Shown here: in pieces, positions 23,472 through 49,043 of the stretch
How positions within the stretch are numbered: the stretch's first letter is position 1
Layout: every line of letters begins with the position of its first letter
From: Acidobacteriota bacterium
GTDB taxonomy: Bacteria > Acidobacteriota > Terriglobia > Acidiferrales > UBA7541
Reading direction: 5' to 3'
DNA: 64,000 nt
NCBI GenBank assembly: GCA_021324935.1
Contig: JAJPIE010000029.1
Location: forward strand, 18,697 to 82,696
Made by a program: the position numbers and the translations under genes
Notes under the pieces: generated by a model
Database searches by the model: none
Told to the model about the DNA's origin: nothing
The model's input: the letters and a program-made list of their open reading frames with translations, nothing else

Positions 23472-24401
23472 TCACATCGCGACCCAGCCTCTGAGAATTC
23501 CGTAAAGGGACAACGAGCCTACAATCAACCACAAAACTACACCAAGTGCCATCGGACGCCAGCCGACCTGTCGCAGCGTCTCCCGCGAGATGCCCGCTCC
23601 GATCAGAAAAAGAGTCGCCGTCAAGCCAAGGCGCCCCGCTTGAAAAAGCCAGTGATAACCCGTGGAAAGCATCGGCAGGTAGGTGTTCAAAACCGCCGCG
23701 AGACAAAAGAATAGAATGAACCACGGAAACTGAATCTTCGACTTGCTGTGCTTCAGCGCTGCGGTCACCAGCGCCAAAGGCACGATCCACAACGCGCGCG
23801 CGAGCTTCACCGTGGTGCCGATAATGAGCGACTCCGCGCCGTAGCGCGATGCCGCGCCGACCACGGAACTTGTGTCGTGAATTGCCAGAGCCGCCCACAA
23901 GCCAAACTGCGTCTGCGAAAGTTTCAGAAAGTGCCCGAAAGGAGGAAAAATCAGCAAGGCAACGGAATTGAGAACGAATACAGTCCCCAACGAAATGGCC
24001 ATCTCTTCCGCATCCGCATGCAGGATCGGGCCGACGGCGGCAATCGCACTGCCGCCGCAAATCGCCGTTCCGGTGGTGATCAGATAGCCGGAGTTGCCGC
24101 CCACTTCCAGCAATTTCGCCAAGGTAAGTCCAACCAAGAAAGAGAAGCTGATTCCCAGCGCCGTGTAAATGAACCCGTTGCGGCCGGCCTTCAGCACCTC
24201 GTGCAGATTCATCCCGAAGCCGAGGGCAATCACGGAGAGCTGCAGCAGCAGCCGCGCGCCGGTGCGGCTCTGTTTTGGGAGCGGATTGGTGAGAATTAGT
24301 CCGAACAGAATTCCCAGCGTCAGCGCCACCGGGGGTGAAATATATCCGCTGAAACATGCAACAAAAAGCAGGATGAAAAATACGATGCGCGCTGAATCCA
24401 T
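23472..24401 (-). CDS. YeiH / putative sulfate exporter (PSE, UPF0324) membrane protein
   Basis: Multi-TM protein with GTAICGGSAIAAV, AIHDTSSVVGA and TVKLARALW. Confidence 0.9.
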   Translation of the reverse strand: MDSARIVFFILLFVACFSGYISPPVALTLGILFGLILTNPLPKQSRTGARLLLQLSVIALGFGMNLHEVLKAGRNGFIYTALGISFSFLVGLTLAKLLEVGGNSGYLITTGTAICGGSAIAAVGPILHADAEEMAISLGTVFVLNSVALLIFPPFGHFLKLSQTQFGLWAALAIHDTSSVVGAASRYGAESLIIGTTVKLARALWIVPLALVTAALKHSKSKIQFPWFILFFCLAAVLNTYLPMLSTGYHWLFQAGRLGLTATLFLIGAGISRETLRQVGWRPMALGVVLWLIVGSLSLYGILRGWVAM

Positions 24402-25210: not shown

Positions 25211-25612
25211 TCAGTAACCCTCGGGCGGAATTTCGTAACCGGCGGCCTCCAGCGATCCGGCGCCGCTCCATCCCCAGACGAGTACCACGTCTTCCTTGCC
25301 GGTGTTGTCGAAGCCATGCCAGTGCCCACGAGGCGTGAAAATCACGTCGCCCTTGGTGGAAGGCTCGCGGCCCGTGTCGGTGTAAATGTAACCGCTACCC
25401 TGGAGCACGATAAAAAATTCGTCGCAATTCGGGTGGCGATGCTTGTCGTGGCGCGCGCCTGGCGGCAAAACGGTCCAACCGATCAGCAATTTGTCGGATT
25501 GCACCGTTTTCTGATCGATCAGAAACTGCACCTGCATGTTGATCCAGCCTTCGTCTTCGCGGAGCCCCCCCACGCGCGGCACATCGCGCAGATTCGTTCG
25601 ATACGGCTTCAT
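25211..25612 (-). CDS. Cupin domain protein
   Basis: PPGARHDKHRHPNCDEFFIVLQG and PRGHWHGFDN metal-binding cupin motifs. Confidence 0.88.
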   Translation of the reverse strand: MKPYRTNLRDVPRVGGLREDEGWINMQVQFLIDQKTVQSDKLLIGWTVLPPGARHDKHRHPNCDEFFIVLQGSGYIYTDTGREPSTKGDVIFTPRGHWHGFDNTGKEDVVLVWGWSGAGSLEAAGYEIPPEGY

Positions 25613-26493
25613 GATGACATCCCTCCCATCCGTCGGTAGACCTCATATACCGTAACAAAATCGTGTTGCTGCAATCCCAGCCCCCGGCAGGCGTTCAGGA
25701 GTTCATTCGCCGCGGCGCCCAGTGGCACCGGCAGGCCCATTTTTCTGCCAAGATTCAGCGCCAGGAGCATGTCCTTCTGCTGCAGATCCACGCTGCCATA
25801 AGTTGCATCGGAAATGTGTCCTTCCAAAATCAGCGGCGCGCGGTAGGCAATCACCGGCGAAGCAACCACGCTCTTGAGCATCGCGTCCACGGCTACCTCG
25901 CGCGGCACACCGCCTTTTTCGGCCAGCGCCACGCCTTCGCAGAAGCCAATTACCTCGATCACCAGGGTCATATTCAGCGCCACCTTTAGCTGGATCGCCA
26001 GCCCTTGCGCGCCGATATATGTCACCTTCGGCCCGATCGCCAGCAACAAAGGCTGCACACGCTCGAACGCTTCCTGTGGGCCACCCGCCATCAGGGAGGC
26101 CTTGCCCTGTCCGATGGTGAGCGTCGTGCCGGAGATGGGCGTATCCATCATCGTCAGCCCGGCCTTGGCGAATTCCACGCCAATTTCACGGCTGACTTCG
26201 GGATCGATGGTGCTCATGTCGCAATAAATTCCGTCCTTGCGCAACCCGCGAATGACACCGTTTTCACCGAGAGCGATGTTTCGCACCGCATCCGAATCGG
26301 TAACGATCGAGATCACCACGTCCGATTCTGTGGCAAGTTCCCGCGGCGAATTCGCCCAGATCATTCCTAGCTTAAATAGCGGCTCGCCCTTTTCCTTCGA
26401 GCGGTTCCAACCGGTGACCTGGTGCCCCGCGGCCAACAACCGCGGCACGATGGCCTTCCCCATATCACCGAATCCAATAAAGCCGACCTTCAC
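25609..26493 (-). CDS. NAD(P)-dependent beta-hydroxyacid dehydrogenase (3-hydroxyisobutyrate/tartronate-semialdehyde reductase family)
   Basis: VGFIGFGDMG, DMSTIDP, DTPISG, MAGG, catalytic LK. Confidence 0.9.
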   Translation of the reverse strand: MKVGFIGFGDMGKAIVPRLLAAGHQVTGWNRSKEKGEPLFKLGMIWANSPRELATESDVVISIVTDSDAVRNIALGENGVIRGLRKDGIYCDMSTIDPEVSREIGVEFAKAGLTMMDTPISGTTLTIGQGKASLMAGGPQEAFERVQPLLLAIGPKVTYIGAQGLAIQLKVALNMTLVIEVIGFCEGVALAEKGGVPREVAVDAMLKSVVASPVIAYRAPLILEGHISDATYGSVDLQQKDMLLALNLGRKMGLPVPLGAAANELLNACRGLGLQQHDFVTVYEVYRRMGGMSS

Positions 26494-28919: not shown

Positions 28920-29071
28920 GTACCAATTCTTTTCCAAGGCTCTCGCTTATCACTTATTTTGCTTTGTAAAAGAAAGGAAATAGTTGACAATCTGCATCGT
29001 ATGATGGTACAGCGGCTATACCTATTGTGCGGGATTCTTCTCCCGAGCAGGGGATTTTACAGGGGTGTGTC

Positions 29072-32698: not shown

Positions 32699-32724
32699 TT
32701 CACGCTTGAAGTCTGAGCTTTCCC

Positions 32725-32756
32725 GGGGCCGGACTTGTTCCGGCCCCTTCTTTTTT
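32725..32756 (+). terminator. Rho-independent terminator
   Basis: GGGGCCGGA / TCCGGCCCC stem plus TTCTTTTTT. Confidence 0.8.
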
Positions 32757-32806
32757 CGCGGTCGTACGGCAAGGCAAATTAAATCTGCGATGGAAAGGAC
32801 TTATGC

Positions 32807-33673: not shown

Positions 33674-33750
33674 TTTCAATCTGGCAAAACTTTCGAATAG
33701 ACTCCGCCGTTCGAACGATTTGCCAATGTTCCGCGAGAAACATTCTCAAT

Positions 33751-34605
33751 ATGTTGCACTCTAGTTATCACAATCTCAAAATTTGCGTAAAAGTCGGCGC
33801 GCCGACATTGCTCTTGCTGGCCTTCTGCCTCGCGTTCGCCGGGACTGCGGCGGCAAGCGGCGCCGACATTTTGCTGCAAACCGATCGCACACTGATTGAA
33901 GCGTTCCAACAGAAGCAAGAGGCCGCCGCGGAAGCGCTGCTTTCGCCCAATCTTGCATGGATCGATTCCGCGGGCAGGCGGTTCACCCGCGCCGATGCCC
34001 TGAAAACCTTTCCGATGATCGCAAACGCCGATGTGAAACCCAGTGCTCGGATCTATGGCGATTCCGCGGTTCTATTCGCCAACCAGGGCAAAATGAACGT
34101 TCTGCGAGTGTGGTCGAAATCGCCGCAAGGCTGGAAACTGCTTCTCTATCAGGAAGTCCAGCAGGTGGAAAAGTCGGAACCGGCCAACAGCCCGCTTTTG
34201 GGCGAATGCGTAAATCCGTGCAAGGAAATCCCCTTTTCGCCGGCGACGGCTTCGGAAAAAGCCGCCATCGCTTCCTGGCAGGGCGTCATGAAGGCCATGG
34301 CGGAAAACGACGTGTCGGCGTATGCACCGCTGATCGCGGATGAATTCACGGCGACGGATACATTTCATGAACGGCCGTATACAAAAGCGGATCGACTCGC
34401 GCAAATTGAGAAGCAAAAGGCGTCCGGCAAACATAACGCCCCGCCGGAATTGGCCTCCGCGGACATGTACGATCTTGGGGAAACTGTACTGATGATTGCG
34501 AGGGAACAGCGGCGCGGCAGCAACGACTATTTCAATTCAAGGATGTGGGCGCTGCGCGATGGACGCTGGCAGATGCTCTTCAGTTTCAACACACGCATCG
34601 GCTAA
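33751..34605 (+). CDS. Secreted tandem DUF4440 protein, paralog 2
   Basis: LSPNLAWIDSAG, linker CVNPCK, IADEFTATD, WALRDGRWQ. Start uncertain: ATG 33751 chosen, ORF open from 33550. Confidence 0.75.
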   Translation: MLHSSYHNLKICVKVGAPTLLLLAFCLAFAGTAAASGADILLQTDRTLIEAFQQKQEAAAEALLSPNLAWIDSAGRRFTRADALKTFPMIANADVKPSARIYGDSAVLFANQGKMNVLRVWSKSPQGWKLLLYQEVQQVEKSEPANSPLLGECVNPCKEIPFSPATASEKAAIASWQGVMKAMAENDVSAYAPLIADEFTATDTFHERPYTKADRLAQIEKQKASGKHNAPPELASADMYDLGETVLMIAREQRRGSNDYFNSRMWALRDGRWQMLFSFNTRIG

Positions 34606-34620
34606 AACCACCAAATTGCA

Positions 34621-34650
34621 AAATAAAGGGGGCGGAAAAGGCTCCGCCCC
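34621..34650 (-). terminator. Terminator between convergent genes
   Basis: GGGGCGGA / TCCGCCCC stem with a TTTATTT tail on the minus strand. Confidence 0.6.
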
Positions 34651-34678
34651 ATGGAGAAGTAGTGAACTCGCGAGTCGC

Positions 34679-35845
34679 CTACGCGCTTTGGTAAAGCTTG
34701 GTCATCACGAACTCTCGATGCCCCAGAGCTTCCGCGCAAGTGAGCCGGCCATTACAGGTACGCAGCGTGATGTCGATCAGGCGGTCGCCCGCCTCATCGA
34801 GAGTCATCTCGCGCCGCAAGAGACCGGAGACATCGAGATCAATGTGCTCGCTCATGGTGCGCGCCGTTTTCGGGTTGGCGGTCAGCTTGATCACTGGCTC
34901 GATCGGATTGCCGATGACGTTGCCTTGCCCCGTGGGAAACAGGTGAACGACGAAGCCGGCCGCGGCCTGCAAGGTCACGCACTCCGCCGCAGCCGAGGAA
35001 GTATCCATGTAATAGAGGCCTGGGCCCTTGGCTGGCGGTTCCGCTGGTTTCAGAACGTCGATGAATTTCGTCTTCTTGCCGATTTTCTGGAAATTGCCGA
35101 AGGCTTTTTCTTCGATGGTGGTTAAACCGCCCGCAATGTTTCCTTTGGTGGGCTGCGATTCAGAAAGATCGCTGGTCTTGTGGCGCTCGATCACGTCCTG
35201 ATACGCGCGGAAGACCTGGAGGAACTTCTCGCCCACTTCTTTCGTGGCCGCGCGGCTGGCACAGACCATTTCCGCGCCGGTGAGTTCCGAGGTCTCGCCG
35301 AAGCAAGTGGTTGCACCGAGCGGATCGAGCTTATCGATCAGGTTTCCAACGGTAGGGCAAGAGCCGAGTCCCGAGGTGGTGTCGCTCTCGCCGCATTTGG
35401 TGGAAACAAACAAATCCTTAATGGAGCAAAGTTCGCGCTGCTTCTCGGTGGCCCACTGAACGAACTCGCGCGCCTTGCGCGAAGCGTTGGCAATCGTGGT
35501 GATGTCGCCGTTGCCCTCGATCGAAAAACCCGCCACCGGCTTTCCGGTTTTGGCGATCCCGTCCACGATGCGGCTGGTCCAGCCGGGTTCGATGCCGATC
35601 ACCACACAAGCGGCAACGTTGGGGTTGCACCCCGTGCCGATCAACGTGCGAAAGTGCAACTCCAGGTCCTCGCCGAACTGCAGGCGCCCGTAGGCGTGCG
35701 GCAATGCGAGCGTGCCCTTGATGTTGTTGGCCACGGCTTCGCAAGCCGCATTGGACAAGTCATCCAAAGGCAGAATCACCACGTGATTGCGAATGCCAAT
35801 TCTTCCGTTCTCCCGCTTGTATCCGTAAAAATCGTAGCGTCCCAT
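34679..35845 (-). CDS. suyB: UxaA-family hydro-lyase, (2R)-sulfolactate sulfo-lyase beta subunit-like
   Basis: [68 protein letters not shown] and C-terminal [14 protein letters not shown] closely resemble SuyB as I recall it. Confidence 0.75.
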
Positions 35846-35848
35846 CGC

Positions 35849-36133
35849 TCACCACCTTTTCGTTTTCATGTTGTGGACATGCACGTGATGCCCCTTGCCG
35901 ATTTCCGCGATGGCGCGGCCCACATCGTGGCCGTATTTGAGGATGGTGTCGCCGGGACGAATGTCGTTGAGGGCGATTTTGTGGCCCAGCGGCACCGGGT
36001 CGAGGGATTTGAGGGAGATAGTTTCATCCGTCTCCATGATCCAGCCGTTCAAGTCCGCGCCGGCTGGCACGTCTTCCACAACCATGACGCCGACGGTGTC
36101 GGCTTTGTCGTGCACAATAAAATGCGTGATCAT
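35849..36133 (-). CDS. suyA: SAF-domain alpha subunit of UxaA/SuyAB lyase
   Basis: FIVHDKADTVGV...GWIM...PLGHKIAL...KYGHDVG...HVHVHNMKTKRW. Confidence 0.75.
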   Translation of the reverse strand: MITHFIVHDKADTVGVMVVEDVPAGADLNGWIMETDETISLKSLDPVPLGHKIALNDIRPGDTILKYGHDVGRAIAEIGKGHHVHVHNMKTKRW

Positions 36134-36173
36134 TGCCCCTTCTCTTTCGTGGATTTACTAAAGCGCTTGCAAA

Positions 36174-36890
36174 CTACTGTGGAGATTCCTTCACCAGCAG
36201 ACGGTTGACTTCCGCCGCCGCTTTCTGCACGTCTTCGCGGATGGCCTGTTCGGCCAGCTTTGCGTCGCGCGCACGCACTGCGCGCAACATCACGCGAAGA
36301 TTCCGGATGCTCTCCTGTTGCCGCTCGAAGGAACGCTGCGGATGCGACAATCCTATAGCCCGCCAACGCCGGATGCGGCCATGCAACATGGCAATCATGG
36401 ACGACAGAGTCTGACTGCGCGCGCCGGCGAAGAGCACGTCGTAAAAAGTGTTCTTCATTTCCAAGATGCGTTCGGGATCGCCGGTTTCATAGGCATCGGC
36501 AACGCCACGCAGAGCTTCATCGAGTTGGTCCACCTGCATATCGCCGGCATGCTGGGTGAAGAGACGCGCCGCCAGCCCCTCCAAAACGGCGCGAATTGCA
36601 TAGAGATCCTGTGCTTCTTCCAGGGTCAACGCGCGCACGACCGGCCCCTTGTTCGGAATAATGGCCACCAGTCCTTCGGACTCAAGCTGCCGCAAAGCTT
36701 CGCGGATCACGGTGCGGGAAACACCCATCATGGAGATCAATTCGCGCTCGACAAGGCGCTCGCCGGGATTCAGCCGGCCGGAAATGATGGACTGGCGCAA
36801 CTCCTGAAGCACCTGGCGCCGGAGGGGAGCGGCGGCCTTGGGGATGGCGCCAATGAGGGAAGGACCTGAATGAGGGCTTGACTGTCTCAT
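36174..36890 (-). CDS. GntR-family (FCD) transcriptional regulator
   Basis: GRLNPGERLVERELISMMGVSRTVIREALRQL HTH plus FCD domain. Start at ATG 36890 or 36926. Confidence 0.9.
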   Translation of the reverse strand: MRQSSPHSGPSLIGAIPKAAAPLRRQVLQELRQSIISGRLNPGERLVERELISMMGVSRTVIREALRQLESEGLVAIIPNKGPVVRALTLEEAQDLYAIRAVLEGLAARLFTQHAGDMQVDQLDEALRGVADAYETGDPERILEMKNTFYDVLFAGARSQTLSSMIAMLHGRIRRWRAIGLSHPQRSFERQQESIRNLRVMLRAVRARDAKLAEQAIREDVQKAAAEVNRLLVKESPQ

Positions 36891-36971
36891 ATTCTCGTAA
36901 TACGGTACTATGGGTGGGCCATTCATGCAACTTTATTCTCTTATTCCCGCCCACTCTAATTCGAGGTTACC

Positions 36972-38045
36972 GTGACTCCTTCTCCTGTTAAGGTAGCTAT
37001 TGTTGGTCTCGGCCGCTGGGCTAAAGTTCTCACGCGCGCCATCTCCAAATCCGACAAACTGAAAATCGTCGCCGGCTTCAGCCGATCCGTGGAAAAACGC
37101 GAGGCTTTCCAGACGGAGATGGGCGTGCCTTCGGCTCCGAGCATGGAAGCAATTTTATCCGATTCGTCGATCGAAGGTGTGATTTTGACGGTGCCGAATG
37201 AGCAGCATCTGCCGATGGCTGAACTCGTGGCCAAGGCGAAAAAGCACGTCTACACGGAAAAGCCCATCGCCAGCTCGCTCGCCGAAGGGTTGCAGATTGC
37301 CGACCTCGAGAAGAGGTATGGCATTACCGTGACCGTCGGGCACAGCGCGCGATTGATGGGCGGAATTCGGAAAATCCGCGAGGCCATTGACAAGGGCGAA
37401 CTAGGCCGCGTGGCGTTTATTGAAGCAAATTTTTCCAACAATCGCGCGCTCGAGCTGACGCCGAAAACCTGGCGCTGGTACAAGGATCGCGCGCCGGGCG
37501 GCCCGCTGTCGCAACTCGCCATTCACATGTTCGACGTTCTGCACTACCTCGGAGGCGAAGTTGTCGAGGCCAGCTCGATGGCCTCCAAGCTGTCGCCGGT
37601 GGGGGCAGAGGTGGACGACCAGTCCATGACGCTGGTGAAGTTCGCCGACGACAAGGTGGGATACGTCGGATCCTGCTGGACATCGCCCGGCGTGTTTGCC
37701 GTGCGCGTGTTCGGCTCCACCGGGTTGATGCACTTCGAAATCGACTTTGACACCTGGGACACGCCGGACCAATTGCACAAAAGTTCGATGCTGTACATCC
37801 AGCGCGGCAAGGATGGCTACGCGAAGCGCGAGGAACTGCGGGTGCCGGAGAGCGACATGTTCCGCGCGGAGCTGGAAATGTTCGCGGAGAGCTGCCGGAC
37901 CGGAAAATCGAATGAGCTGAGCGCGAACAACGGCAACGTCGCGGTGGCCATGGTGTATGCCGCGCTGAAATCCATCGACAAAAATGGACAGCGCATCCGC
38001 ATCGCCGACGTCATGCAAGAAGTGAAGACCAAGTTGGGAGCCTGA
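36972..38045 (+). CDS. Gfo/Idh/MocA family oxidoreductase
   Basis: VAIVGLGRWA, HVYTEKPIA, GGPLSQLAIHMFD. GTG start with RBS GAGG. Confidence 0.9.
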   Translation: MTPSPVKVAIVGLGRWAKVLTRAISKSDKLKIVAGFSRSVEKREAFQTEMGVPSAPSMEAILSDSSIEGVILTVPNEQHLPMAELVAKAKKHVYTEKPIASSLAEGLQIADLEKRYGITVTVGHSARLMGGIRKIREAIDKGELGRVAFIEANFSNNRALELTPKTWRWYKDRAPGGPLSQLAIHMFDVLHYLGGEVVEASSMASKLSPVGAEVDDQSMTLVKFADDKVGYVGSCWTSPGVFAVRVFGSTGLMHFEIDFDTWDTPDQLHKSSMLYIQRGKDGYAKREELRVPESDMFRAELEMFAESCRTGKSNELSANNGNVAVAMVYAALKSIDKNGQRIRIADVMQEVKTKLGA

Positions 38046-38055
38046 CGGGAAACCC

Positions 38056-38859
38056 ATGCTGACCAGCCGATACTTTATCGACCTCACACAACCGGAAATC
38101 GCGGCGCAATTGAAAAAACACCCGCTGGTGATATTGCCGCAGGGCAGCGTGGAGCAGCATGGCCCGCATCTGCCGACGGGAACGGACATTTACGCGTCCA
38201 ATATAATTGGCCACGCGGTGGCCGAGCGCATGGATGGGCTGGTCCTGCCTGGCGGACCGCTGGGTGTCACCCCACTGCACATGCCGTTTGAAGGCACGAT
38301 TACGCTCACGCCAGACACCTATATCCGGCTGGTGATGGAAACCTGCGGCTCGATGGCAAAGCACGGCGCCAAATACCTGCTGATTTTGAACTGGCACGAG
38401 ATGAATATTCCGGCGCTGGGTGTTGCGGCGGACCGGCTGCATCGCGAGCATGGCATGACCGTGCTCACCGTGCAGGCTTGTTACGTGGCCGAGGAGCACT
38501 TCGGCAAGGAGTGTGGGGGCCTGACGCATGGCGGCGAAATCGAGGCACTGGCGGTTTTGGCATATCGGCCGGACCTTGTGCATCTCGACCGCATCGATTA
38601 CTCCTCTGACCACACCCATGGCAAGCGGGTTGACGCCTTGCGGCGCACGCGCATCTATCAGCCGGTGCTGACGGATGTCCGCTCGATTGCCCCAACGGGC
38701 TGGTACGGCAGCCCGCAACATGCAACGGCGGAAAAAGGGCGGAAGATGGTCGCTGAGGTGGCTGATTCCATCGCGGCAAAGGCAAAAGAAATCTTCCGGG
38801 AACTCGACCGCATCCAGGGCGGCGTGGCGGAAGTCCGCACTTTGGACAAGGGATGCTGA
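38056..38859 (+). CDS. Creatininase-family cyclic amidohydrolase
   Basis: GSVEQHGPHLPTGTD, LNWHEMN and HGGEIE metal-ligand motifs. Confidence 0.88.
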   Translation: MLTSRYFIDLTQPEIAAQLKKHPLVILPQGSVEQHGPHLPTGTDIYASNIIGHAVAERMDGLVLPGGPLGVTPLHMPFEGTITLTPDTYIRLVMETCGSMAKHGAKYLLILNWHEMNIPALGVAADRLHREHGMTVLTVQACYVAEEHFGKECGGLTHGGEIEALAVLAYRPDLVHLDRIDYSSDHTHGKRVDALRRTRIYQPVLTDVRSIAPTGWYGSPQHATAEKGRKMVAEVADSIAAKAKEIFRELDRIQGGVAEVRTLDKGC

Positions 38860-39257
38860 TGGCCCAGGTATTCCGACAATCGGAGGCGAAGCAACTCGGG
38901 CTTCCCGGGCGTAAGGCGCTGGAAATCGTCTCTGGGGCCCTTGGCTCGCGCAATGTGACGCTGCGGCTGGCGGAAATCCCCGTGCCGCAGCCCGGCGATC
39001 CTCCGCGCGCCGCGCATCAACACAATGAATTTGAGGAGTGTATCTTCGTCCTTTCCGGAGAAGGCAGGACGTATGCGGATAGCGGCGAATTTTCGCTGAA
39101 GGCGGGAGACACGCTTCTGATGCCTGCGGGCGAAAAACATGTCACGCGCAACACGGGCAAAGAGCCGCTCTTGCTTCTCTGTTTCTTTCCCGTGCCGGAT
39201 ATCACCGCAGGCACGCAGGAACCCGGCGTTTCCAGGGGGCCCTCGAATCGATCATGA
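38859..39257 (+). CDS. Cupin domain protein
   Basis: HQHNEFEECIFVLSG and PAGEKHVTRN. TGATG overlap with the upstream gene. Confidence 0.85.
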   Translation: MAQVFRQSEAKQLGLPGRKALEIVSGALGSRNVTLRLAEIPVPQPGDPPRAAHQHNEFEECIFVLSGEGRTYADSGEFSLKAGDTLLMPAGEKHVTRNTGKEPLLLLCFFPVPDITAGTQEPGVSRGPSNRS

Positions 39258-40234
39258 GCTGTGACGTCCTTTGCCTGAGACCCGAAGCGGATTTTCAGCG
39301 TGTCGGCGCCATGCCGCCAGCGCATCTCGACGTTGTTTACCGCGCATGGAATGATCCCGATGTTCCGGCGTTGATGAGAGAAGCGCGAGCGCTGGTGATT
39401 CCGGCCGTTGGCCCGAAGCTGCCGGCAAGCCTATTCGAGAAGAGTACGGTGAAGTTCGTGCAGGTCACCGGCGCCGGGCTGGATCGCCTGGATCTGCCCT
39501 TCCTGAAACAACGCAGCATCGCCGTGGCCAACGTTCCCGGCGGGAGCAATGAAGCCGTTGCGGAATACGCCGTGACCACCGCCAGCGTGCTATTGCGGCG
39601 TTTTGCGTGGGCCGATGCGGAAATTCGCCGGGGCAATTATCGTGATTTTCGCGCGCGCATGATCGCAGACAGCCTGCTGGGCCTGGATGGCTTGACCGTG
39701 GGGATTGTCGGTTTCGGCGTGATCGGCGTCGCAGTGGCCAGCGCGTTTCACAAGCGCGGGTGCTCCATTCTTTTTTATGATCCGGCGCCGCGGGATCCGA
39801 AAGCCGCGGAGGCGCTTGGCGCGAAAGCATGCTCACTGGATGAACTTCTGCGCGTATCCGACGTAGTTACGCTGCACGTGCCATTATTGCCGCAGACGAC
39901 CGGCTTGATCGGCGGGCGTGAATTTTCCCTGATGAAACCCGGCGCCGTGCTCGTACAGGCTTCGCGTGGCGGCATCGTCGATGAAGCGGCGCTGGTGCAG
40001 GCGTTGCAGGACGGAAAACTGGGTGGAGTGGCCGTTGACGTTTATTCCACGGAGCCGCCGGCGACGGACCACCCGCTGTTTATGTTGCAGGGTGAAGCCG
40101 GACTCCGGATTCTTTTTACGCCGCATATTGCCGGCGTGACACGGCAATCAACGGCATTTCTCTGCCGCTCCGCGTGGAGGAACGTCGACCGATTTTTTTC
40201 AGGAACGGAAGCACCCCTGGACGTGGTGAATTGA
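39254..40234 (+). CDS. D-isomer-specific 2-hydroxyacid dehydrogenase
   Basis: TGAGLD, VGIVGFGVIG, LHVPLLPQT, ASRGGIVDE, DVYSTEP, TPHIAG. Confidence 0.92.
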   Translation: MSCDVLCLRPEADFQRVGAMPPAHLDVVYRAWNDPDVPALMREARALVIPAVGPKLPASLFEKSTVKFVQVTGAGLDRLDLPFLKQRSIAVANVPGGSNEAVAEYAVTTASVLLRRFAWADAEIRRGNYRDFRARMIADSLLGLDGLTVGIVGFGVIGVAVASAFHKRGCSILFYDPAPRDPKAAEALGAKACSLDELLRVSDVVTLHVPLLPQTTGLIGGREFSLMKPGAVLVQASRGGIVDEAALVQALQDGKLGGVAVDVYSTEPPATDHPLFMLQGEAGLRILFTPHIAGVTRQSTAFLCRSAWRNVDRFFSGTEAPLDVVN

Positions 40235-40362
40235 AGCCGGGTTCGGGACACAACCACGGGTTATGGCGCAGGCTGTGTTGCCGGTGCGGGACTTAACTCA
40301 GGGGATCGTACGGGCAGCCCGGAGTGGCTGTGCAACAGAATTTGCAGCGCGGAGACCATCGA

Positions 40363-41667
40363 GTGGGCAACGTCGCGTCGAATCGAAAAGCCAGGCCCTG
40401 GTACAGCGTGCTTTATATCCAGGTGCTGATTGCCGTGGTGGTAGGGTGCGTCATCGGCGCCTTGTTTCCGAAAACGGGTATGGCGCTGAAACCGCTCGGG
40501 GATTCCTTCGTAGCGCTCATCCGCATGATGATCGCTCCGGTGATCTTCTGCGTGATCGTGCAAGGGATCGCGTCGATGAGCGACCTGAAAAAGGTGGGCA
40601 CGATCGGCGTAAAAACGCTTGTCTATTTCGAAATCGTCTCCACGCTGGCCCTGATCATTGGTATTTTGGTCGCCGTCGCGTTTCACCCCGGCTACGGCCT
40701 CAATATTGACCCGGCGACCCTGGACCCGAAGGCGGCTTCGGCATTTGCTACACGCGCCAAGGAATCGGGATTCATTCCCTTTCTTGTGGGTTTCCTTCCG
40801 AAAACATATATCGGGGCACTTGCTGAAGGAGAAGTGCCGCAAGTCCTGCTGATTTCGATCCTGACGGGGTTCGCGATCGCCAATATGGGCGAAGTGGGCC
40901 TGCGCGCGCTGAAGGGCATTGAGATCGCGAACAAAGTGGTGTTCGGTATCGTGCGGATCGTGGTCCGCGCCGCGCCTCTCGGCGCCTTGGGCGGGATGGC
41001 GTTCACAGTGGGGAGCTACGGCGTCGCTTCGCTGACGAACCTGTTGAAGCTAATGGGCACGTTTTACCTTTCGAGCTTCTTGTTCGTGGTGGCGGTGCTG
41101 GGGACCATCGCGCATTTTGCAGGGTTTTCGATTTTTCGCTTCCTGGCGTATATCAAAGACGAATTGTTGATTGTGCTGGGAACCAGCTCTTCGGAAACCG
41201 TGCTGCCGGATATGATGCGCAAGCTGGAGGCATTGGGCGCGCCGCGAACCATAGTGGGCCTGGTTTTCCCGACTGGCTATGTCTTCAATACGGACGGCAC
41301 GAATATTTATCTGACACTCTCCGCCATTTTTCTGGCGCAAGCCACCAACACGCATCTCTCGATGGGACAGATCGCCGGCATTCTGCTCTTTGCACTGGTA
41401 GCATCCAAGGGGGGATCCGGCGTAACCGGAACGGGCTTTGTGACGCTGGCGGCCATTCTTGCAGCTGTGCCCTCGATTCCCGTCCAGTCACTGGCGTTGC
41501 TGGTCGGAATCGAAAAGTTCATGAGTGAATGCCGCGCGCTGACCAATGTTGTGGGCAACGGCGTGGCAACACTGGTCGTGAGCCGCTGGCAAGGCGAATT
41601 AGACGTGGTCAACATGCGGCGCGTGATGGAGTCGCGAACGGAAAATGGCACGCCGGATTCGGCGTGA
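40363..41667 (+). CDS. dctA: Dicarboxylate/amino acid:cation symporter (DctA), copy 1
   Basis: LYIQVLIA, GTSSSETVLP, PTGYVFNTDGT, SKGGSGVTG. GTG 40363 fits RBS GGAG; alternative start 40324. Confidence 0.9.
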   Translation: MGNVASNRKARPWYSVLYIQVLIAVVVGCVIGALFPKTGMALKPLGDSFVALIRMMIAPVIFCVIVQGIASMSDLKKVGTIGVKTLVYFEIVSTLALIIGILVAVAFHPGYGLNIDPATLDPKAASAFATRAKESGFIPFLVGFLPKTYIGALAEGEVPQVLLISILTGFAIANMGEVGLRALKGIEIANKVVFGIVRIVVRAAPLGALGGMAFTVGSYGVASLTNLLKLMGTFYLSSFLFVVAVLGTIAHFAGFSIFRFLAYIKDELLIVLGTSSSETVLPDMMRKLEALGAPRTIVGLVFPTGYVFNTDGTNIYLTLSAIFLAQATNTHLSMGQIAGILLFALVASKGGSGVTGTGFVTLAAILAAVPSIPVQSLALLVGIEKFMSECRALTNVVGNGVATLVVSRWQGELDVVNMRRVMESRTENGTPDSA

Positions 41668-41718: not shown

Positions 41719-42960
41719 TTAGTTGCCCGAAGGCATTTCGAGATTGCGGACCAGCCAGGGCACCAGCACTTTCCGGAATATTACCGGATCCGGCCAGATC
41801 TTCACCTGACGTCCCAGATGCCCGCCCTGCGGATTGATCCACGCCTCTTTTGGAACGTCTCCGTTGCTCAGCAGGAGATACGCGTCAGAAACTGGCACTT
41901 GTGTGTCCAGGGCACCGGCGATAATGAGCATGGATGTGGTCGGCTTGCCCAATAGATGCTGATTGACGAGGGAAAGCTTCGGGAGAATTTCTCCCAGGTC
42001 CTCGACTTTGTTCGCGCCTTCAAAAATCGACATGAGCGCCGGGCCAAGGCCGAATAGATATTCGCGATTGCCGAGCGTTTTCTGGAGAACGAAATCCTTC
42101 TGAAAGGTGGCGTCGACCGGAGGGGATTGCGCGACGACTGCCTTTAGGCGCGCGTGCTCAACGATGGCGAGTTTCGTAGCCCAATACGCGCCAAAGCTCT
42201 GGCCGTCGACGCCGATGCGCGTTTTATCCACTTCCGGCCGCGACTCCAGGTAATCGATCACTTTGGAAAACATGCGTTCGGCATTGACGCCAGCCTTGAT
42301 TGGCGCCTGGCCTGTGCCGGGGGAATCGATGCCAATGAATCCGATGCCGGAATTCAGAACCACGCCGAAATTTACAGAGAGGTCTTCCTTGCGGCTGTCG
42401 AGCCCGCTGATGGCAATCACCACGGGAACGGGGCCTTTCTCGTTTTTCGGCAAACGCATGTAGCCGACGATCTCCGAACCTTCGAAGGGAATGCGCACCA
42501 CCTCGAGCGGGGGATCCATCATCTTCGCGTGCGCCAGAAACGCCTCCAGCGCCTTGGTGTAGGCGCGCTGCTTGCCGGGCGAAGCGGGGACCGGCCAGCG
42601 CCCAAAGGAATAGAGGCGCCAGGCGCGAATAAAATCCGCGTCGGCCTTCCTGGGATCGCTGGCAAGCAGCGAATTGCCCTCATTCATGTAACGATCGGCA
42701 ACGGCGCTGAACGCGGCGGCCCATTTGTCGTTGTCCATGGTATCGATGTGCGAAAAGGCTTCGCGCACGTCCGCCGAATCGAGCCCGATGAGCGGGTACA
42801 TGCCATTTTCGGCGCGCTTGATCGCCTCGGCCTTGATTTCGTCCAAGGTGCGCTCTTGTTGCGGCTGAGCGTTAGAGGGAGGCACCAGCGAAGCCAGAAA
42901 AATTGCTGCAAACAAACCGAATAGAAATTCACGCAAAACAGGTCTCCTTTGACGGCTCAT
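41719..42960 (-). CDS. Secreted alpha/beta hydrolase, FrsA/DUF1100-like
   Basis: Signal peptide, RIPFEG, ISGLDSRKED, DSPGTG, GQSFGAYW nucleophile elbow. Confidence 0.8.
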   Translation of the reverse strand: MSRQRRPVLREFLFGLFAAIFLASLVPPSNAQPQQERTLDEIKAEAIKRAENGMYPLIGLDSADVREAFSHIDTMDNDKWAAAFSAVADRYMNEGNSLLASDPRKADADFIRAWRLYSFGRWPVPASPGKQRAYTKALEAFLAHAKMMDPPLEVVRIPFEGSEIVGYMRLPKNEKGPVPVVIAISGLDSRKEDLSVNFGVVLNSGIGFIGIDSPGTGQAPIKAGVNAERMFSKVIDYLESRPEVDKTRIGVDGQSFGAYWATKLAIVEHARLKAVVAQSPPVDATFQKDFVLQKTLGNREYLFGLGPALMSIFEGANKVEDLGEILPKLSLVNQHLLGKPTTSMLIIAGALDTQVPVSDAYLLLSNGDVPKEAWINPQGGHLGRQVKIWPDPVIFRKVLVPWLVRNLEMPSGN

Positions 42961-43952
42961 TTTGCTTTGACAAGGGCGGCATCATAGTAGGAGGGATCGT
43001 AATATTTATCCGGCGAAGGTGGATGGCCGCCCCAGGAACCTTCCACTTCTGCGCGAAGTTTCAGCACGTTTTTGAAACCTGCGATGTCGAAGGCTGCGTC
43101 CTTGGCGAATCCTCCCGGCTCATTGACGCTCATTTCGTAGTCTTCAGCAGCAATTTCCGGCGCAAGGTGGAATTGCTTGGTGAGGAGTTCAACGACCTGC
43201 GCCTTGTTTGCGGGGTTCATCAACCAGCGCTGCGCCTCAATGCACGCCGTGAGGAACGAAATCAGGACCTCGCGATGCTCCTTGGCCCAGGCGCGTTGCG
43301 TGAAGAATCCCGCAGCCTGGTAGGGGCCGATCAGCTTTTGCACCGAGCCGAGGCTAGCGAAGCCTTCATGCTTGGCGACCAGGGAAGTCGGCGGTCCCAG
43401 CATTGAGCCGGCGAAGTCTTTGTTTTCCCGCATGGCCACCAGGCGCATCGGCGTGGCCCCGTAGGCTTTCATCTGGTAATCTTTGTCGGCAGCCATGCCC
43501 TGAAGCAGCATGATTTTTTTCATCTGCAGAGCGTACGCGGTGTTTACCGCATCGACGATGAGGGTCTTTCCACGGAGATCCGCGAAGGACTTGACGACGG
43601 GCTGAACGATAAGCTCATTTTGCGAGCCTTCGCCGCCCATGACGATGACCACGTCCTGGTGGGCGAGTTCGACCATGGCTACATCGTTGTCGACAGCAAG
43701 GTACGCGAGGTCACCCTTCCCCCCCGCCAGATCGCTGCGCAACTCTTCGGAATTTTTCTTGTTGTCGTTAATGACTTCGAGCCCGTACTTGGCGAAGAGT
43801 CCCTGCTGGTCGGCGATGACAAATTGCAACGGCCTGCCAAGCAGCGTGAGCACGTGAATTTGCCGCTTCGGCGCGGGCTGCGCCTGGCAAATCGCCGAAA
43901 GCAGAATCGCGCACAATAGCAGCACGAGTGCAGCGGGAGCGATGCGTTTCAT
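42957..43952 (-). CDS. Substrate-binding protein, NMT1/SsuA/THI5-like
   Basis: Signal peptide MKRIAPAALVLLLC, QGLFAKYGLEV, SFADLRGKTL, type-2 PBP pattern. ATG 43952. Confidence 0.8.
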   Translation of the reverse strand: MKRIAPAALVLLLCAILLSAICQAQPAPKRQIHVLTLLGRPLQFVIADQQGLFAKYGLEVINDNKKNSEELRSDLAGGKGDLAYLAVDNDVAMVELAHQDVVIVMGGEGSQNELIVQPVVKSFADLRGKTLIVDAVNTAYALQMKKIMLLQGMAADKDYQMKAYGATPMRLVAMRENKDFAGSMLGPPTSLVAKHEGFASLGSVQKLIGPYQAAGFFTQRAWAKEHREVLISFLTACIEAQRWLMNPANKAQVVELLTKQFHLAPEIAAEDYEMSVNEPGGFAKDAAFDIAGFKNVLKLRAEVEGSWGGHPPSPDKYYDPSYYDAALVKAK

Positions 43953-43975
43953 TGGTTTCTCCTGTCGAGAAAGAA

Positions 43976-45580
43976 TCATGGTGCGCCTTCGTTGAGCTTA
44001 TCGAGCGACCACTCAGTTACGGGCATGGGGTCCAGACTGGGCTTGCCAAGGTTCGGGCAGCTCAAAGCATACAGCCCAGTATCGGTGGCCGCCCAGATCA
44101 CGTTGCGATCCCATTCGACGAGGACGTTATCCACGGTACGGTCGTAGCTGCCGAATTTTTTCAGATCGCCGCCCTGTGGGGGAATGAAGTACGCCACTTC
44201 CTCGGGCCGGTAAAGATCGCCGATATCATAGCAGCGCAATCCGGCAATGAAATAGCTGTAGGCGATGAACTCCTGACGCGGCTTTCCCGGAGCTTTCAGA
44301 TGAGGAGGATTGTGAGCGCCAAAACGTCCGCGCTTGAAGCAGAAATCGCGGTAAGGCGCTTCGGGCGGCGGAACAGGGCGCGGAAGTTGCGCGACGGGGA
44401 CGGGATTGGTCTCGTCGCGGATGTCGACCACCCAATTCGGCAAATAAATTTGGTTGCAGTCGGAGTTCGTTGTCTCCCCGTTGGTCAGGACGAAGCCGCG
44501 TTCGAGGATGCCGCAATAAATGGTGTGGAACGCAATGCCCATGCCGGCGTATTGCGGTGGCGGTTCAAACTTTCCGATCTCTTTCTGGTGCTCCGGGTCG
44601 GAAAGATCGAGAATGCGGAAGCCGTTGCACCCAAAGGCGCCGTAACCGCGATTCCCGCCGTCTTCGAGTTTCTTGGGAACGTAGACAGGACCATGCAGCC
44701 CGGCAAACGGCGTCTGGTCGGCAACAACTTTGGGCGGCACAAGCTTCGACCAAACCCACTTGTTATATTCCGCTTCTTCGCCCTTGCGCGATCCGGGTAC
44801 CCACCACATCGAGACTTCTTTGACGTTCGTGGGATCGGACATATCTACGATCATGTTGCCGTTGACGAGTTCGCGGAAATACGAAGGCTGGTGAATGAAG
44901 CTTTCGTCGGGCGCGGTGTCGAGATAGGCGTATTTGCCGCCGTCGTAGTAATTGCGGTGAGTACCTTGGCCGGTGGCGCCAGTACTGAATTCGGAAAGCT
45001 TCACGATGTTGGAGGGATTGGTGGCATCATAGACTCGAATTCCGCGCAGCCCTTTGTAGTTCTTCCGCTTGTCGTCGAGGTGCGGGTCATCATATTTGCC
45101 CATCGGCGCTTCGGGAGTGGAATCGGTGATGGGAGTTTGCGCCCCAGTGACCAGAATCCACTTTTTCAGATTCTTGTTGTAAGCCACCTGGACCTGATAG
45201 CCGTCGAAGCCGCCTTTATTGAACATGGTGGGCTTGCGCACGTCGCTCACATCAACCACGTCGCCCTGCTGGAAGATATAGCGGCGATTGCCAACGGACA
45301 TCATCTGCATTTTCCCGTGGCGCGGCTGGCCCGGCGCGAAATGTGCCAGGACTTCCATATTCCGGATATACATTCGGCGATCGAGATAAGAAATGCTGTT
45401 CGGGCTGGGATGGCCATGATGGTCTGCCAGAGCGGACAATGGGGAAGCGGCCAAGGCCAACCCCGCGCCGGCGGCGGTTCGGAGGAAGTCGCGGCGCGTG
45501 GGGTGGGGAGTCTTTGCTTTGAGCACTTTTGACAGGTCGTTCGATGAGTGCGGCGTACGAGATGATTTCTTGCGTTTCAT
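43976..45580 (-). CDS. Tat-exported LVIVD-repeat beta-propeller protein
   Basis: TRRDFLR twin-arginine signal, repeated RILDLSDP / WVVDIRDETNP / RCYDI motifs, RFGAHN. ATG 45580. Confidence 0.8.
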   Translation of the reverse strand: MKRKKSSRTPHSSNDLSKVLKAKTPHPTRRDFLRTAAGAGLALAASPLSALADHHGHPSPNSISYLDRRMYIRNMEVLAHFAPGQPRHGKMQMMSVGNRRYIFQQGDVVDVSDVRKPTMFNKGGFDGYQVQVAYNKNLKKWILVTGAQTPITDSTPEAPMGKYDDPHLDDKRKNYKGLRGIRVYDATNPSNIVKLSEFSTGATGQGTHRNYYDGGKYAYLDTAPDESFIHQPSYFRELVNGNMIVDMSDPTNVKEVSMWWVPGSRKGEEAEYNKWVWSKLVPPKVVADQTPFAGLHGPVYVPKKLEDGGNRGYGAFGCNGFRILDLSDPEHQKEIGKFEPPPQYAGMGIAFHTIYCGILERGFVLTNGETTNSDCNQIYLPNWVVDIRDETNPVPVAQLPRPVPPPEAPYRDFCFKRGRFGAHNPPHLKAPGKPRQEFIAYSYFIAGLRCYDIGDLYRPEEVAYFIPPQGGDLKKFGSYDRTVDNVLVEWDRNVIWAATDTGLYALSCPNLGKPSLDPMPVTEWSLDKLNEGAP

Positions 45581-45830: not shown

Positions 45831-45896
45831 TCCCCTTTTGCTTGCGATCCCAAGCGAACCCATTTGCCTGGGCTGGGAAAATGAGTGAGGCCAACC

Positions 45897-47261: not shown

Positions 47262-47274
47262 GGATAAGAAAGAC

Positions 47275-47313
47275 TTGCAAAGGGTGATGGAGCGTGGTAA
47301 TGTGGTCTGACAA
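47275..47313 (+). promoter_or_regulatory. Promoter of the FadR-type regulator with an overlapping degenerate operator
   Basis: TTGCAA (47275-47280), 17 bp, TAATGT (47298-47303, preceded by TG). TGGTCTGACAA at 47303-47313 is one mismatch from TGGTC-N-GACCA. Confidence 0.55.
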
Positions 47314-48161: not shown

Positions 48162-49043
48162 GTGGCTAATTTAGGATTCGTCGGACTGGGTGTGATGGGC
48201 AGCGAAATGGTGAATCGTCTGCTCAGCAAGGGGCACGGCGTCACCGGCTGGAACCGGACGCGGTCCAAAGCCGAATGGCTGCTGAAGAAGGGAATGAAGT
48301 GGGCGGATTCACCGCGAGCCGTGGCCGAAGCCTCAGACGTGATCTTCTCCATGGTCACAAATTCGGCGGCGCTCGCGGCGGTGATGAACGGCCCGGATGG
48401 CATGTTGGTGGCTGCGGGGCCCAACAAGACCTTCGTGGACATCAGCACGGTGGCTCCGGCGGTGAGCCGCGATTTTGCCGCAAAGCTCCGGGAAAAAGGC
48501 AGCGACATGGTGGACGCGCCAGTTTCGGGCAGCGTGATCACACTGCAGGAGGGGAAGCTCTCCGTGATGGTGGGGGGCCGCAAGGAAACTTTCGAGAAGG
48601 TAAAGCCGCTGCTGCTCGACATCGGTCCGAAGGTGACGCACGTGGGAAACAACGGACTCGCCCTGGTGATGAAGATCGGCACCAACTTGAGCCTGGCGGT
48701 GCAAATGCTCGCCTTTTGCGAGGGCGTCCTGCTGGCCGAAAAGAGCGGCATCAAGCGGGAAGTCGCGGTGGACGTGCTGACACATAGCGTGATCGCTTCG
48801 CCGATGGTGCAATATCGCGGCCCATTCGTGCTGAAGCAACCCGATGAAGCCTGGTTCAACGTAAACATGATGCAAAAAGACATGCTGTTAGCGCTTGAAT
48901 TGGGACGGCAACTCGACGTGCCCATGCCGACGACGGCAGTGACCAACGAATTTCTGACCGCGGCGCGCGGAATGGGCTTGGTGGAAAAGGATTTCGCAGT
49001 CGTATTTGACGTACTGGCACAGATGTCCGGGGTAAAACCATGA
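48162..49043 (+). CDS. NAD(P)-dependent beta-hydroxyacid dehydrogenase, second paralog
   Basis: LGFVGLGVMG, DISTVAP, DAPVSG, MVGG, MK, KDMLLAL. Confidence 0.9.
   Translation: MANLGFVGLGVMGSEMVNRLLSKGHGVTGWNRTRSKAEWLLKKGMKWADSPRAVAEASDVIFSMVTNSAALAAVMNGPDGMLVAAGPNKTFVDISTVAPAVSRDFAAKLREKGSDMVDAPVSGSVITLQEGKLSVMVGGRKETFEKVKPLLLDIGPKVTHVGNNGLALVMKIGTNLSLAVQMLAFCEGVLLAEKSGIKREVAVDVLTHSVIASPMVQYRGPFVLKQPDEAWFNVNMMQKDMLLALELGRQLDVPMPTTAVTNEFLTAARGMGLVEKDFAVVFDVLAQMSGVKP

Follow-up and report, generated by a model that had tools for sequence, protein, structure and literature searches.

Orthologues of the sulfolactate sulfo-lyase SuyAB in an acidobacterial gntR-suyAB unit that faces a recurrent companion operon

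Is the two-subunit enzyme encoded near the middle of a stretch of acidobacterial DNA a sulfolactate sulfo-lyase (SuyAB) or a sugar-acid dehydratase, and what do the genes surrounding it suggest about the pathway in which it functions? The stretch (termed here the window) spans 64,000 nucleotides (nt), from position 18,697 to position 82,696 of contig JAJPIE010000029.1 (assembly GCA_021324935.1, Acidobacteriota bacterium); coordinates below are those of the window unless another locus is named. Much of the organic sulfur in soil is present as sulfonates, and sulfolactate is a main end product of the bacterial degradation of sulfoquinovose, the sugar of plant sulfolipid; SuyAB is an iron-dependent member of the UxaA/GarD superfamily. 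An earlier note, made from the sequence alone, had proposed a SuyAB-like lyase with a possible role in organosulfonate desulfonation. Here it is argued that the pair very probably is SuyAB, (2R)-3-sulfolactate sulfo-lyase (EC 4.4.1.24), encoded within a gntR-suyAB unit, and that it would be fed by the flow of sulfolactate proposed below.

Three genes on the minus strand make up the unit. The regulatory gene gntR (36174..36926, with a likely start at 36890) encodes a FadR-subfamily protein with a GntR helix-turn-helix (HTH) and an FCD domain (Pfam) and is co-oriented with suyAB; it is followed after 40 nt by suyA (35849..36133; 94 residues), which encodes a small SAF-type subunit, and this in turn, after a gap of 3 nt, by suyB (34679..35845; 388 residues), which encodes the large subunit (gaps from the list of open reading frames, ORFs). 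The large subunit matches Pfam GD_AH_second (E = 2.8e-33) and GD_AH_C (E = 4.1e-84). The small one is recognized by its identity to SuyA and by the N-terminal SAF part of TIGR03248, the GarD model (positions 7-79, E = 5.5e-8); a Pfam scan at default thresholds returned no match for it. Just past the suyB stop codon lies a terminator-like hairpin (34629..34650, minus strand; a pattern match from a consensus scan only), the 9-bp stem of which contains seven GC pairs and is followed by CTTTATTTTG. From this layout, gntR, suyA, suyB and the terminator probably constitute one transcription unit. The arrangement is the heteromeric one, with the gene for the SAF small subunit directly upstream of a separate gene for the UxaA-C large subunit. 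The split subunits downstream of a GntR gene, which the earlier note had described, thus exist as ORFs at exactly the coordinates that it gave and with the domains expected; likewise, the closest proteins, from metagenome-assembled genomes (MAGs) of Candidatus Acidoferrum, Sulfotelmatobacter and Terriglobales, bear out the acidobacterial host that it had supposed.

That the two subunits are true orthologues of SuyA and SuyB is secure on sequence grounds, because identity, phylogeny, clade invariants, the cysteine pattern, the identity of SuyA and the gene context of the orthologues all point to it. A translated search of 72,556 plasmids (PLSDB) with the window's SuyB reveals a bimodal distribution of identities: 13 records lie at 65-75% and every other record lies below 40%. 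The window's protein is 69-73% identical to reference SuyB from Cupriavidus, Paracoccus and Methylobacterium (these reference loci being those of sister strains or species of the assayed strains, and not the assayed proteins themselves), and 27-39% identical to all other UxaA/GarD relatives compared; between the references from Cupriavidus and Paracoccus the identity is 64.5%. The yardstick for orthology, about 70% identity across phyla, is taken from Burrichter et al., who proved activity with recombinant subunits of the Desulfovibrio enzyme and found SuyB homologues more than 70% identical to it across Proteobacteria, Deltaproteobacteria and Firmicutes. The window's SuyA is 51% identical to that of C. 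pinatubonensis and 43% identical to that of P. versutus. On the C. pinatubonensis plasmid (SuyB match of about 70%), suyAB adjoins hpsN/hpsO, which encode dehydrogenases for 2,3-dihydroxypropane-1-sulfonate (DHPS); in P. versutus (70-71%), a GntR-suyA-suyB-sulfate exporter cluster lies by hpsNOP-like genes (hisD-like, short-chain dehydrogenase and alcohol dehydrogenase), a sulfite oxidase gene lying some 8 kb beyond.

The phylogeny against SuyB, UxaA and GarD that the earlier note had named as a check was run as a maximum-likelihood tree of 95 sequences ('quick' search setting). The outgroups were UxaA and GarD of E. coli, four split pairs found in sugar-acid settings, and full-length paralogues encoded in the window's genus. 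In this tree 86 SuyB-type rows, including the window's, form one clade with a support of 100 in the Shimodaira-Hasegawa-like approximate likelihood ratio test; the clade's stem measures 3.75 substitutions per site, and the window's SuyB is nested between the reference loci. It retains all 156 columns that are near-invariant within the clade, 27 of which are found in none of the nine outgroup rows. At the four columns that hold the superfamily's cysteines it has L30, R54, I85 and C151--that is, three of the four cysteines are replaced--and these states are common to between 77 and 86 of the 86 SuyB-clade rows, depending on the column, while the outgroup rows mostly have cysteine at all four. 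According to Watanabe et al., the four cysteines are conserved across the UxaA/GarD superfamily 'except for sulfolactate sulfo-lyase', and SuyAB is the only heteromeric enzyme among the functionally characterized members; uncharacterized split UxaA pairs also exist beside those of the SuyAB type.

One split pair, on plasmid 3 of Variovorax sp. PBL-E5 (L190, 3714-5161), shares 38% identity with the window's and branches as sister to the SuyB clade. It too lacks three of the four superfamily cysteines, its neighbours encode a hydroxyacid dehydrogenase, an Ldh_2-family oxidoreductase, a tripartite tricarboxylate transporter (TTT) binding protein and a GntR regulator, and the enzyme may act, as lyase or dehydratase, on an acid similar to sulfolactate.

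The gene context of the orthologues points in the same direction as the tree. A scan of one genome per prokaryotic species with SuyB yielded 80 orthologous loci (76-94% identity), in 78 of which a SuyA homologue adjoins SuyB; other neighbours are Ldh_2/ComC (30 loci), SuyR (28), HpsN/O/P (18-23), SlcC-like dehydrogenases (17-18), TauE (7) and SuyZ/PSE (5). This association with organosulfonate genes is a property of the SuyB orthogroup; in the window itself only the SlcC-like dehydrogenase and DctA are adjacent. Orthogroup identity, phylogeny, clade residues, cysteines and the context of the 80 loci therefore agree with the proposal of the earlier note that the enzyme is a lyase of the SuyAB type rather than a sugar-acid dehydratase.

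The occurrence of suyAB in Acidobacteria was already known (from peatland MAGs and from JGI labels), and the window's pair is a further member of a known family: JGI labels such proteins '(2R)-sulfolactate sulfo-lyase subunit beta' and NCBI labels them 'UxaA family hydrolase'. An identity of at least about 65% to reference SuyB, together with L/I-R-I-C at the four cysteine columns, cleanly separates true SuyB from 'UxaA family hydrolases'. What is new is an eight-gene block (gntR-suyAB together with a divergent operon), its probable operator, the association with DctA, and a pattern of gain or loss of the gntR-suyAB cassette. The presence of SuyAB in relatives of Acidoferrum and Sulfotelmatobacter, abundant soil Acidobacteria, supports a role for them as second-tier mineralizers that return the sulfur as sulfite and sulfate.

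The divergent operon, on the plus strand, consists of five genes in the order mocA, creatininase-like hydrolase, cupin, SlcC-like dehydrogenase and dctA. The first (36972..38045) encodes a Gfo/Idh/MocA-family oxidoreductase (Pfam), the best PDB match of which is 3db2, an uncharacterized oxidoreductase (232 bits); its adjacency to gntR-suyAB is conserved. The second (38056..38859) encodes a creatininase-family metal hydrolase (PF02633, E = 1.4e-57) that scores below every NCBIfam equivalog cut-off (creatininase, 97 bits; MftE, 94; IolN, 57). No close homologue of this hydrolase was found on PLSDB plasmids (the best is 42% identical, from haloarchaea), and only generic creatininase clusters were found for it in the ESM Atlas. 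The third gene (38853..39257) encodes a small cupin of 134 residues (Pfam Cupin_2), with weak PDB matches only. No example of the companion operon from a cultured and annotated organism came to light, nor did a full-text literature search reveal any link between the creatininase, cupin or MocA families and sulfonates; this recurrent, uncharacterized three-enzyme set is flagged here for biochemistry.

The fourth gene (39254..40234) encodes a D-2-hydroxyacid dehydrogenase of the SERA/SlcC type (Pfam 2-Hacid_dh and 2-Hacid_dh_C). Its best NCBIfam match is the phosphoglycerate dehydrogenase (PGDH) model and its best PDB match 1wwk, its nearest models being phosphoglycerate dehydrogenases; in the literature, SlcC, the characterized (S)-sulfolactate dehydrogenase, falls in or beside the SERA/phosphoglycerate dehydrogenase clade. 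The protein is 63% identical to the dehydrogenase that heads a suyAB operon in the alphaproteobacterium Pseudolabrys; its identity to the Ldh_2-paired dehydrogenases of the Methylobacterium and Rhodococcus suy clusters is 34-37%. It is a candidate (S)-sulfolactate/sulfopyruvate oxidoreductase. The fifth (40324..41667) encodes a DctA-type C4-dicarboxylate transporter (NCBIfam DctA, 570 bits, above the cut-off). On a plasmid of Methylobacterium radiotolerans a DctA 40% identical to it directly follows suyAB, and DctA of this type is pointed out here as a candidate carrier that would import sulfolactate.

How these proteins might act together can be proposed as follows. Other soil bacteria, in degrading the sulfoquinovose of plants or DHPS, would release sulfolactate, and the DctA-type carrier would import it (uptake in this manner being possible because sulfolactate is the sulfonate analogue of malate). 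The SlcC-like dehydrogenase would interconvert (S)-sulfolactate and sulfopyruvate, and SuyAB would cleave (R)-sulfolactate by removing the C2 proton and eliminating sulfite, leaving pyruvate to enter central metabolism. The sulfite would then be oxidized aerobically by a SorA-like sulfite dehydrogenase, whose gene lies outside this locus, and the sulfate would exit the cell, possibly through a PSE protein. As regards this presumed fate of the sulfite, the genome encodes four molybdoenzymes of the sulfite-oxidase family, one of them SorA-like (451 bits) with the dimerization domain, and two TauE-family proteins elsewhere. Because no dsrA was found in it beyond weak assimilatory-type matches, sulfite respiration was set aside. 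(The window's genome is 91% complete, and the absences reported here are bound to incomplete assemblies and to the queries used.)

Between gntR and mocA lies a putative divergent control box of 35 nt (36877..36911), CTTGAC-N10-TATTCTCGTAATACGGTACTAT, which an alignment of gntR-mocA intergenic regions shows to be conserved in 43 distinct loci from two phyla, including that of Pseudolabrys. The box holds a palindrome, CGTAATACG (36896-36904), of the GT-N3-AC type that is typical of GntR operators, and it is absent from loci that lack gntR-suyAB; hence it probably is the operator of the GntR protein, which would respond to an effector that is likewise putative. Because the box extends into the ORF as annotated, overlapping its first 13 codons, gntR probably starts at 36890 rather than at 36926. 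A sigma-70 promoter scan of the region gave no match, and because the TTGAC of the box has no -10 element at the canonical spacing, no promoter is claimed. The regulator aligns with that of Paracoccus over the HTH only; it has neither the UTRA effector domain nor the orientation divergent from suyAB that distinguish SuyR. The SuyR homologue of Pseudolabrys has UTRA, as do the SuyR proteins at most proteobacterial suy loci. In acidobacterial loci gntR is present or absent jointly with suyAB, and in Pseudolabrys a copy 61% identical to the window's gntR is divergent from mocA.

How firmly, then, is gntR-suyAB tied to the companion operon? Relatives within the genus keep the whole stretch: the TonB receptor, two DUF4440 genes, suyB-suyA-gntR, and mocA-hydrolase-cupin-dehydrogenase-dctA. 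The eight-gene block also recurs in another acidobacterial family, where its flanks are different (genome G243). A metagenome scan with the hydrolase yielded 80 soil contigs of two kinds: about 40 have gntR next to mocA, 33 of these also having suyAB, while 17 lack exactly gntR-suyA-suyB and lack the operator box as well. In those 17 the distance from the stop codon of the second DUF4440 gene to the mocA start is 15-20 nt in most cases and never exceeds about 140 nt. This second architecture, which corresponds to 29027-41667 of the window, thus reads TonB-DUF4440-DUF4440-MocA-hydrolase-cupin-dehydrogenase-DctA, a single tight operon on one strand without gntR-suyAB.

Within a sample of 301 genomes of the family, the hydrolase and SuyB occur together in 15 (adjacent in at least 11), the hydrolase only in 8, SuyB only in 13, and neither in 265; the 15 co-occurrences compare with about 2 expected, though such counts overstate the significance because the genomes are related and thus not independent. 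The eight hydrolase-only genomes are 92-98% complete, have the second architecture and lack SuyB anywhere, which suggests that the locus serves some anionic substrate on its own; dependence of the operon on SuyAB was rejected for the same reason. In two genomes of the family (G601 and G635, below) a truncated or diverged suyB lies next to the operon. Beyond the family the hydrolase is rare: an orthologue was found in 1 of 400 sampled genomes of the phylum, namely in the genome from the other family that has the eight-gene block, while a sample of 400 Alphaproteobacteria yielded none besides that of the Pseudolabrys genome on which the search was centred. In Pseudolabrys, gntR-mocA-hydrolase-cupin (61-75% identical) lies, in rearranged order, beside suyA-suyB-suyZ. 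In the tree the SuyB of Pseudolabrys groups with those of Methylobacterium and Microvirga--that is, with its own taxonomic kin--and its suy operon is headed by a dehydrogenase of the window's type and includes M20 and Amidohydro_1 hydrolases. The module and suyAB were brought together on at least two occasions, in Acidobacteria and in Pseudolabrys. Repeated joining of the two units speaks for a functional link between them; the existence of each on its own implies that the link is not obligatory.

The suyAB pair is, moreover, patchily distributed within the genus, where it occurs in 7 of 25 and in 6 of 51 genomes in two samples. Among relatives SuyB is 89-95% identical whereas the flanking genes are only 60-85% identical (34679-41667 compared with loci L018-L021 and L108-L187), and the identities between SuyB of Acidobacteria and some SuyB of Alphaproteobacteria are 85-88%; this pattern is compatible with very strong constraint or, alternatively, with a recent transfer of the cassette. 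In two genomes with suyB beside the companion operon the gene is shortened or diverged: in G601 (C5:694075-694710) only residues 1-212 match, and in G635 (C4:780359-781171) residues 1-271 match at 76% identity, which suggests that loss of the cassette is under way in some lineages. An orphan suyAB pair occurs in a Candidatus Acidoferrales MAG (L022, 9714-11167) between an RND efflux system and a Pst-like ATP-binding cassette (ABC) transporter; no regulator or sulfonate partner was found within the roughly 12.5 kb examined, and that genome lacks Ldh_2 and the creatininase-like gene. Two MAGs of different phyla, a Myxococcaceae MAG (L041) and a Rhodospirillaceae MAG (L042), have identical SuyB proteins; this is most likely a binning error involving a 2.5-kb contig, or else a very recent transfer.

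Against this background three other explanations can be weighed. The pair might be a split UxaA/GarD-type dehydratase of altronate, galactarate, idonate, arabinonate or a similar sugar acid, with the MocA oxidoreductase and the hydrolase as its partners in a sugar-acid or cyclitol pathway, in the manner of the MocA-type protein and IolN in the Thermotoga inositol route. The only curated models matched are indeed dehydratase ones (Pfam GD_AH, and TIGR03248, on which the window's SuyB scores 139.7 bits and thus lies far below the equivalog cut-off of 730.85), the best solved structure matched is GarD, the MocA and creatininase-like neighbours weakly resemble IolG and IolN, and split UxaA pairs that are 36-38% identical occur beside genes for a 2-keto-3-deoxygluconate (KDG) permease, an aldolase of the dihydrodipicolinate synthase type, FAH and fucU. 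Such a dehydratase is nevertheless highly improbable, given identities of 27-39% to dehydratases as against 69-73% to SuyB, the long and fully supported branch that parts the two groups, the presence of only one of the four cysteines that typify the iron site of dehydratases, a sugar-acid context in none of the 80 orthologous loci with the queries used, and the absence, in domain scans, of KDG aldolase and kinase from the locus; of the marks of a sugar-acid dehydratase--an equivalog score, four cysteines, a single chain--the window's pair has none.

The two other explanations accept SuyAB and concern its neighbours. One, which is possible but can be entertained only tentatively, makes the SuyAB orthologue the last step of an undescribed organosulfonate pathway encoded by the divergent operon, which would convert an anionic, perhaps cyclic or amide-linked soil sulfonate (a derivative of cysteate or sulfolactate) into sulfolactate, or would supply (R)-sulfolactate independently of ComC. 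The recurrence of the eight-gene block in several genera of the family, and in another acidobacterial family with different flanks, speaks for it, as do the 15 co-occurrences against about 2 expected in the 301 genomes (at least 11 of them adjacent), the fact that both of the rare occurrences of the hydrolase outside the family adjoin suyAB, the gntR-mocA-creatininase-cupin set beside a native alphaproteobacterial suyAB-suyZ in Pseudolabrys (with the window's type of dehydrogenase at the head of the suy operon), and an operator box common to two phyla. These counts come, however, from related genomes that are not independent samples; 13 genomes have SuyB without the operon; and 8 of 23 operon genomes (92-98% complete) lack SuyB, the operon there being closely joined to the genes for a TonB receptor and two DUF4440 proteins that precede it. 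Nor did the literature reveal a known reaction that ties the MocA, creatininase and cupin families to sulfonates. The evidence from ComC is divided: strict replacement of ComC by MocA, hydrolase and cupin gave a mixed result, in that Ldh_2 is absent from all five block-bearing acidobacteria checked, but also from two of five acidobacteria with suyAB and without the block, and Pseudolabrys has two Ldh_2. The other explanation, rather unlikely on balance, is that gntR-suyAB, as a small mobile cassette, was inserted by chance into an unrelated catabolic locus, so that the neighbourhood would be uninformative as to substrate supply and the cell would scavenge free (R)-sulfolactate for carbon or sulfur. 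This would account for the occurrence of the same flanks with and without the 2.3-kb cassette, for orphan suyAB pairs among unrelated genes in other Acidobacteria, for the patchy occurrence of suyAB among genomes of the genus (7 of 25 in one sample, 6 of 51 in another), for the decaying suyB of G601 and G635, and for a SuyB that is 89-95% identical where its neighbours are 65-85% identical. It fits poorly with the recurrence of the juxtaposition with another suyAB lineage and gene order (Pseudolabrys) and with other flanks (G243), with the conservation across phyla of the gntR-mocA operator box, and with the presence of the same types of dehydrogenase and DctA in undoubted suy clusters elsewhere.

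Several points also weigh against the favoured reading, that of a SuyAB that receives sulfolactate through DctA and the SlcC-like dehydrogenase. No ComC/Ldh_2 that could make the (R)-sulfolactate required by SuyAB from sulfopyruvate was found in the window's genome or in four other block-bearing genomes. No HpsN orthologue was found in the genome either (the best HisD-family match is 34% identical); DHPS is therefore not an evident source of sulfolactate here, and a DHPS route was set aside. The locus encodes no sulfite or sulfate exporter, homology of the regulator to SuyR is limited to the HTH, and a full-text literature search found no link between DctA and sulfolactate. Because the companion operon is present in genomes without SuyB, its genes cannot be assumed to be sulfolactate genes. 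Finally, orthology of SuyA and SuyB, operon anatomy and conservation of the block are what the comparisons here establish, while the enzymatic activity of the window's protein, like that of every acidobacterial SuyAB, is a prediction from orthology and gene context.

Set beside known systems, the gntR-suyAB unit combines familiar and unfamiliar features. It resembles suyR-suyA-suyB-suyZ of Paracoccus pantotrophus NKNCYSA, as described by Rein et al. (2005) and represented here by the pTAV3 locus of P. versutus, in its two subunits (SAF and UxaA-C, the gene for the small one directly preceding that for the large one), in its identities (about 70% for SuyB, 43% for SuyA), in its adjacent GntR-family regulator, in its SuyB cysteine pattern and in all clade invariants. 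It differs in that its regulator is of the FCD type and co-transcribed, whereas the Paracoccus SuyR is of the UTRA type and divergent; in that it lacks a PSE gene directly after suyB, hpsNOP-like genes and an ABC transporter; and in that it has DctA and the MocA, creatininase-like and cupin genes. With the DHPS pathway of Cupriavidus pinatubonensis, in which suyAB is next to hpsN/hpsO (Mayer et al., 2010), it shares membership of the same clade (SuyB 69-70%, SuyA 51%) but not HpsN, of which no orthologue was found in the window's genome. It shares a SERA/SlcC-type dehydrogenase beside suyAB with the SlcC/ComC-SuyAB sulfolactate system of Chromohalobacter salexigens, described by Denger and Cook (2010), to which the clusters of M. 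radiotolerans and Rhodococcus koreensis are similar (that of Methylobacterium also having DctA); unlike C. salexigens, however, the window's genome has no detected ComC (Ldh_2), and the carrier is DctA rather than the tripartite ATP-independent periplasmic (TRAP) transporter SlcHFG.

The closest precedent within the phylum is that of Hausmann et al. (2018), who found suyAB, without suyR and slcHFG, in the peatland Acidobacteria MAGs SbA4 and SbA5, and who proposed sulfite respiration on finding that these carry genes for dissimilatory sulfite reduction; SbA5 also has slcC and comC. Compared by that published description, the window's genome belongs to the same phylum and has the same gene pair, but it has no detected dsrA, has instead a SorA-like sulfite dehydrogenase, and has no comC that could be found, whereas SbA5 has it. 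With UxaA and GarD themselves (E. coli UxaA; GarD, PDB 6U7L; and the D-arabinonate and D-idonate dehydratases) the window's SuyB shares the superfamily fold and the family invariants, including the CG-x-SD motif (151-155) and several Glu, Lys and Asp positions; it is, however, only 27-30% identical to them, they are single-chain enzymes with four conserved cysteines as against one in SuyB, and they eliminate water where SuyB eliminates sulfite.

The earlier note had further pointed to an exporter, a binding protein and hydroxyacid dehydrogenases in the vicinity. A PSE/YeiH-family gene does exist (23472..24401, minus strand; PF03601, E = 3.5e-50), yet it lies 10 kb from suyB--with an FAH-family gene, two hydrolase/dehydrogenase genes, and genes for a beta-propeller protein, a TonB receptor and two DUF4440 proteins in between--so that it is not co-transcribed with suyB as SuyZ/TauZ genes are. 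Its product is 25% identical to the Paracoccus SuyZ homologue. Nor is its position conserved: no PSE gene was found at the corresponding position in the same-genus relatives with suyAB, and two suyAB-bearing relatives have only PSE paralogues 26-30% identical to it anywhere in their genomes. In two other Terriglobia a PSE homologue 58-59% identical to the window's directly follows suyB. The window's protein is thus possibly a SuyZ-like exporter of sulfate or sulfite, weakly linked to suyAB and outside the conserved unit. As for the binding protein, which had been likened to SsuA and NMT1, a gene for an NMT1_2 protein is present (42957..43979, minus strand; E = 1.2e-12), but it is not of the SsuA type, which is encoded with an ABC permease and ATPase: a domain scan found no such genes nearby, and it instead overlaps its neighbours within an operon with genes for an FrsA-like hydrolase and an LVIVD-repeat protein, the same three genes being found also in loci without suyAB.

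The hydroxyacid dehydrogenases, which the earlier note thought might make or epimerize sulfolactate, are all real genes. The one at 39254..40234, being of the SERA/SlcC type, makes the idea reasonable and is the strongest of the additional genes to which the earlier note had pointed; the others are a 3-hydroxyisobutyrate-dehydrogenase-family gene (25609..26493, minus strand) and a second gene of the 3-hydroxyisobutyrate/tartronate-semialdehyde-reductase family (48162..49043, plus strand), both from domain scans. The latter closes a region (45885-49043) that also encodes a GabD-like, NADP-dependent aldehyde dehydrogenase of the succinate-semialdehyde type (688 bits, just under the cut-off) and a second GntR/FCD regulator (47397-48110). 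The GabD-like and 3-hydroxyisobutyrate-type families are the source of sulfolactaldehyde dehydrogenases and reductases elsewhere; these three genes are present also in loci without suyAB.

On the other side of suyB, the two DUF4440 (NTF2-like) ORFs (32807-34605) overlap as listed by 124 nt, and for this reason the second probably begins later. The pair always follows a TonB-dependent receptor, of which the two proteins may be periplasmic partners.

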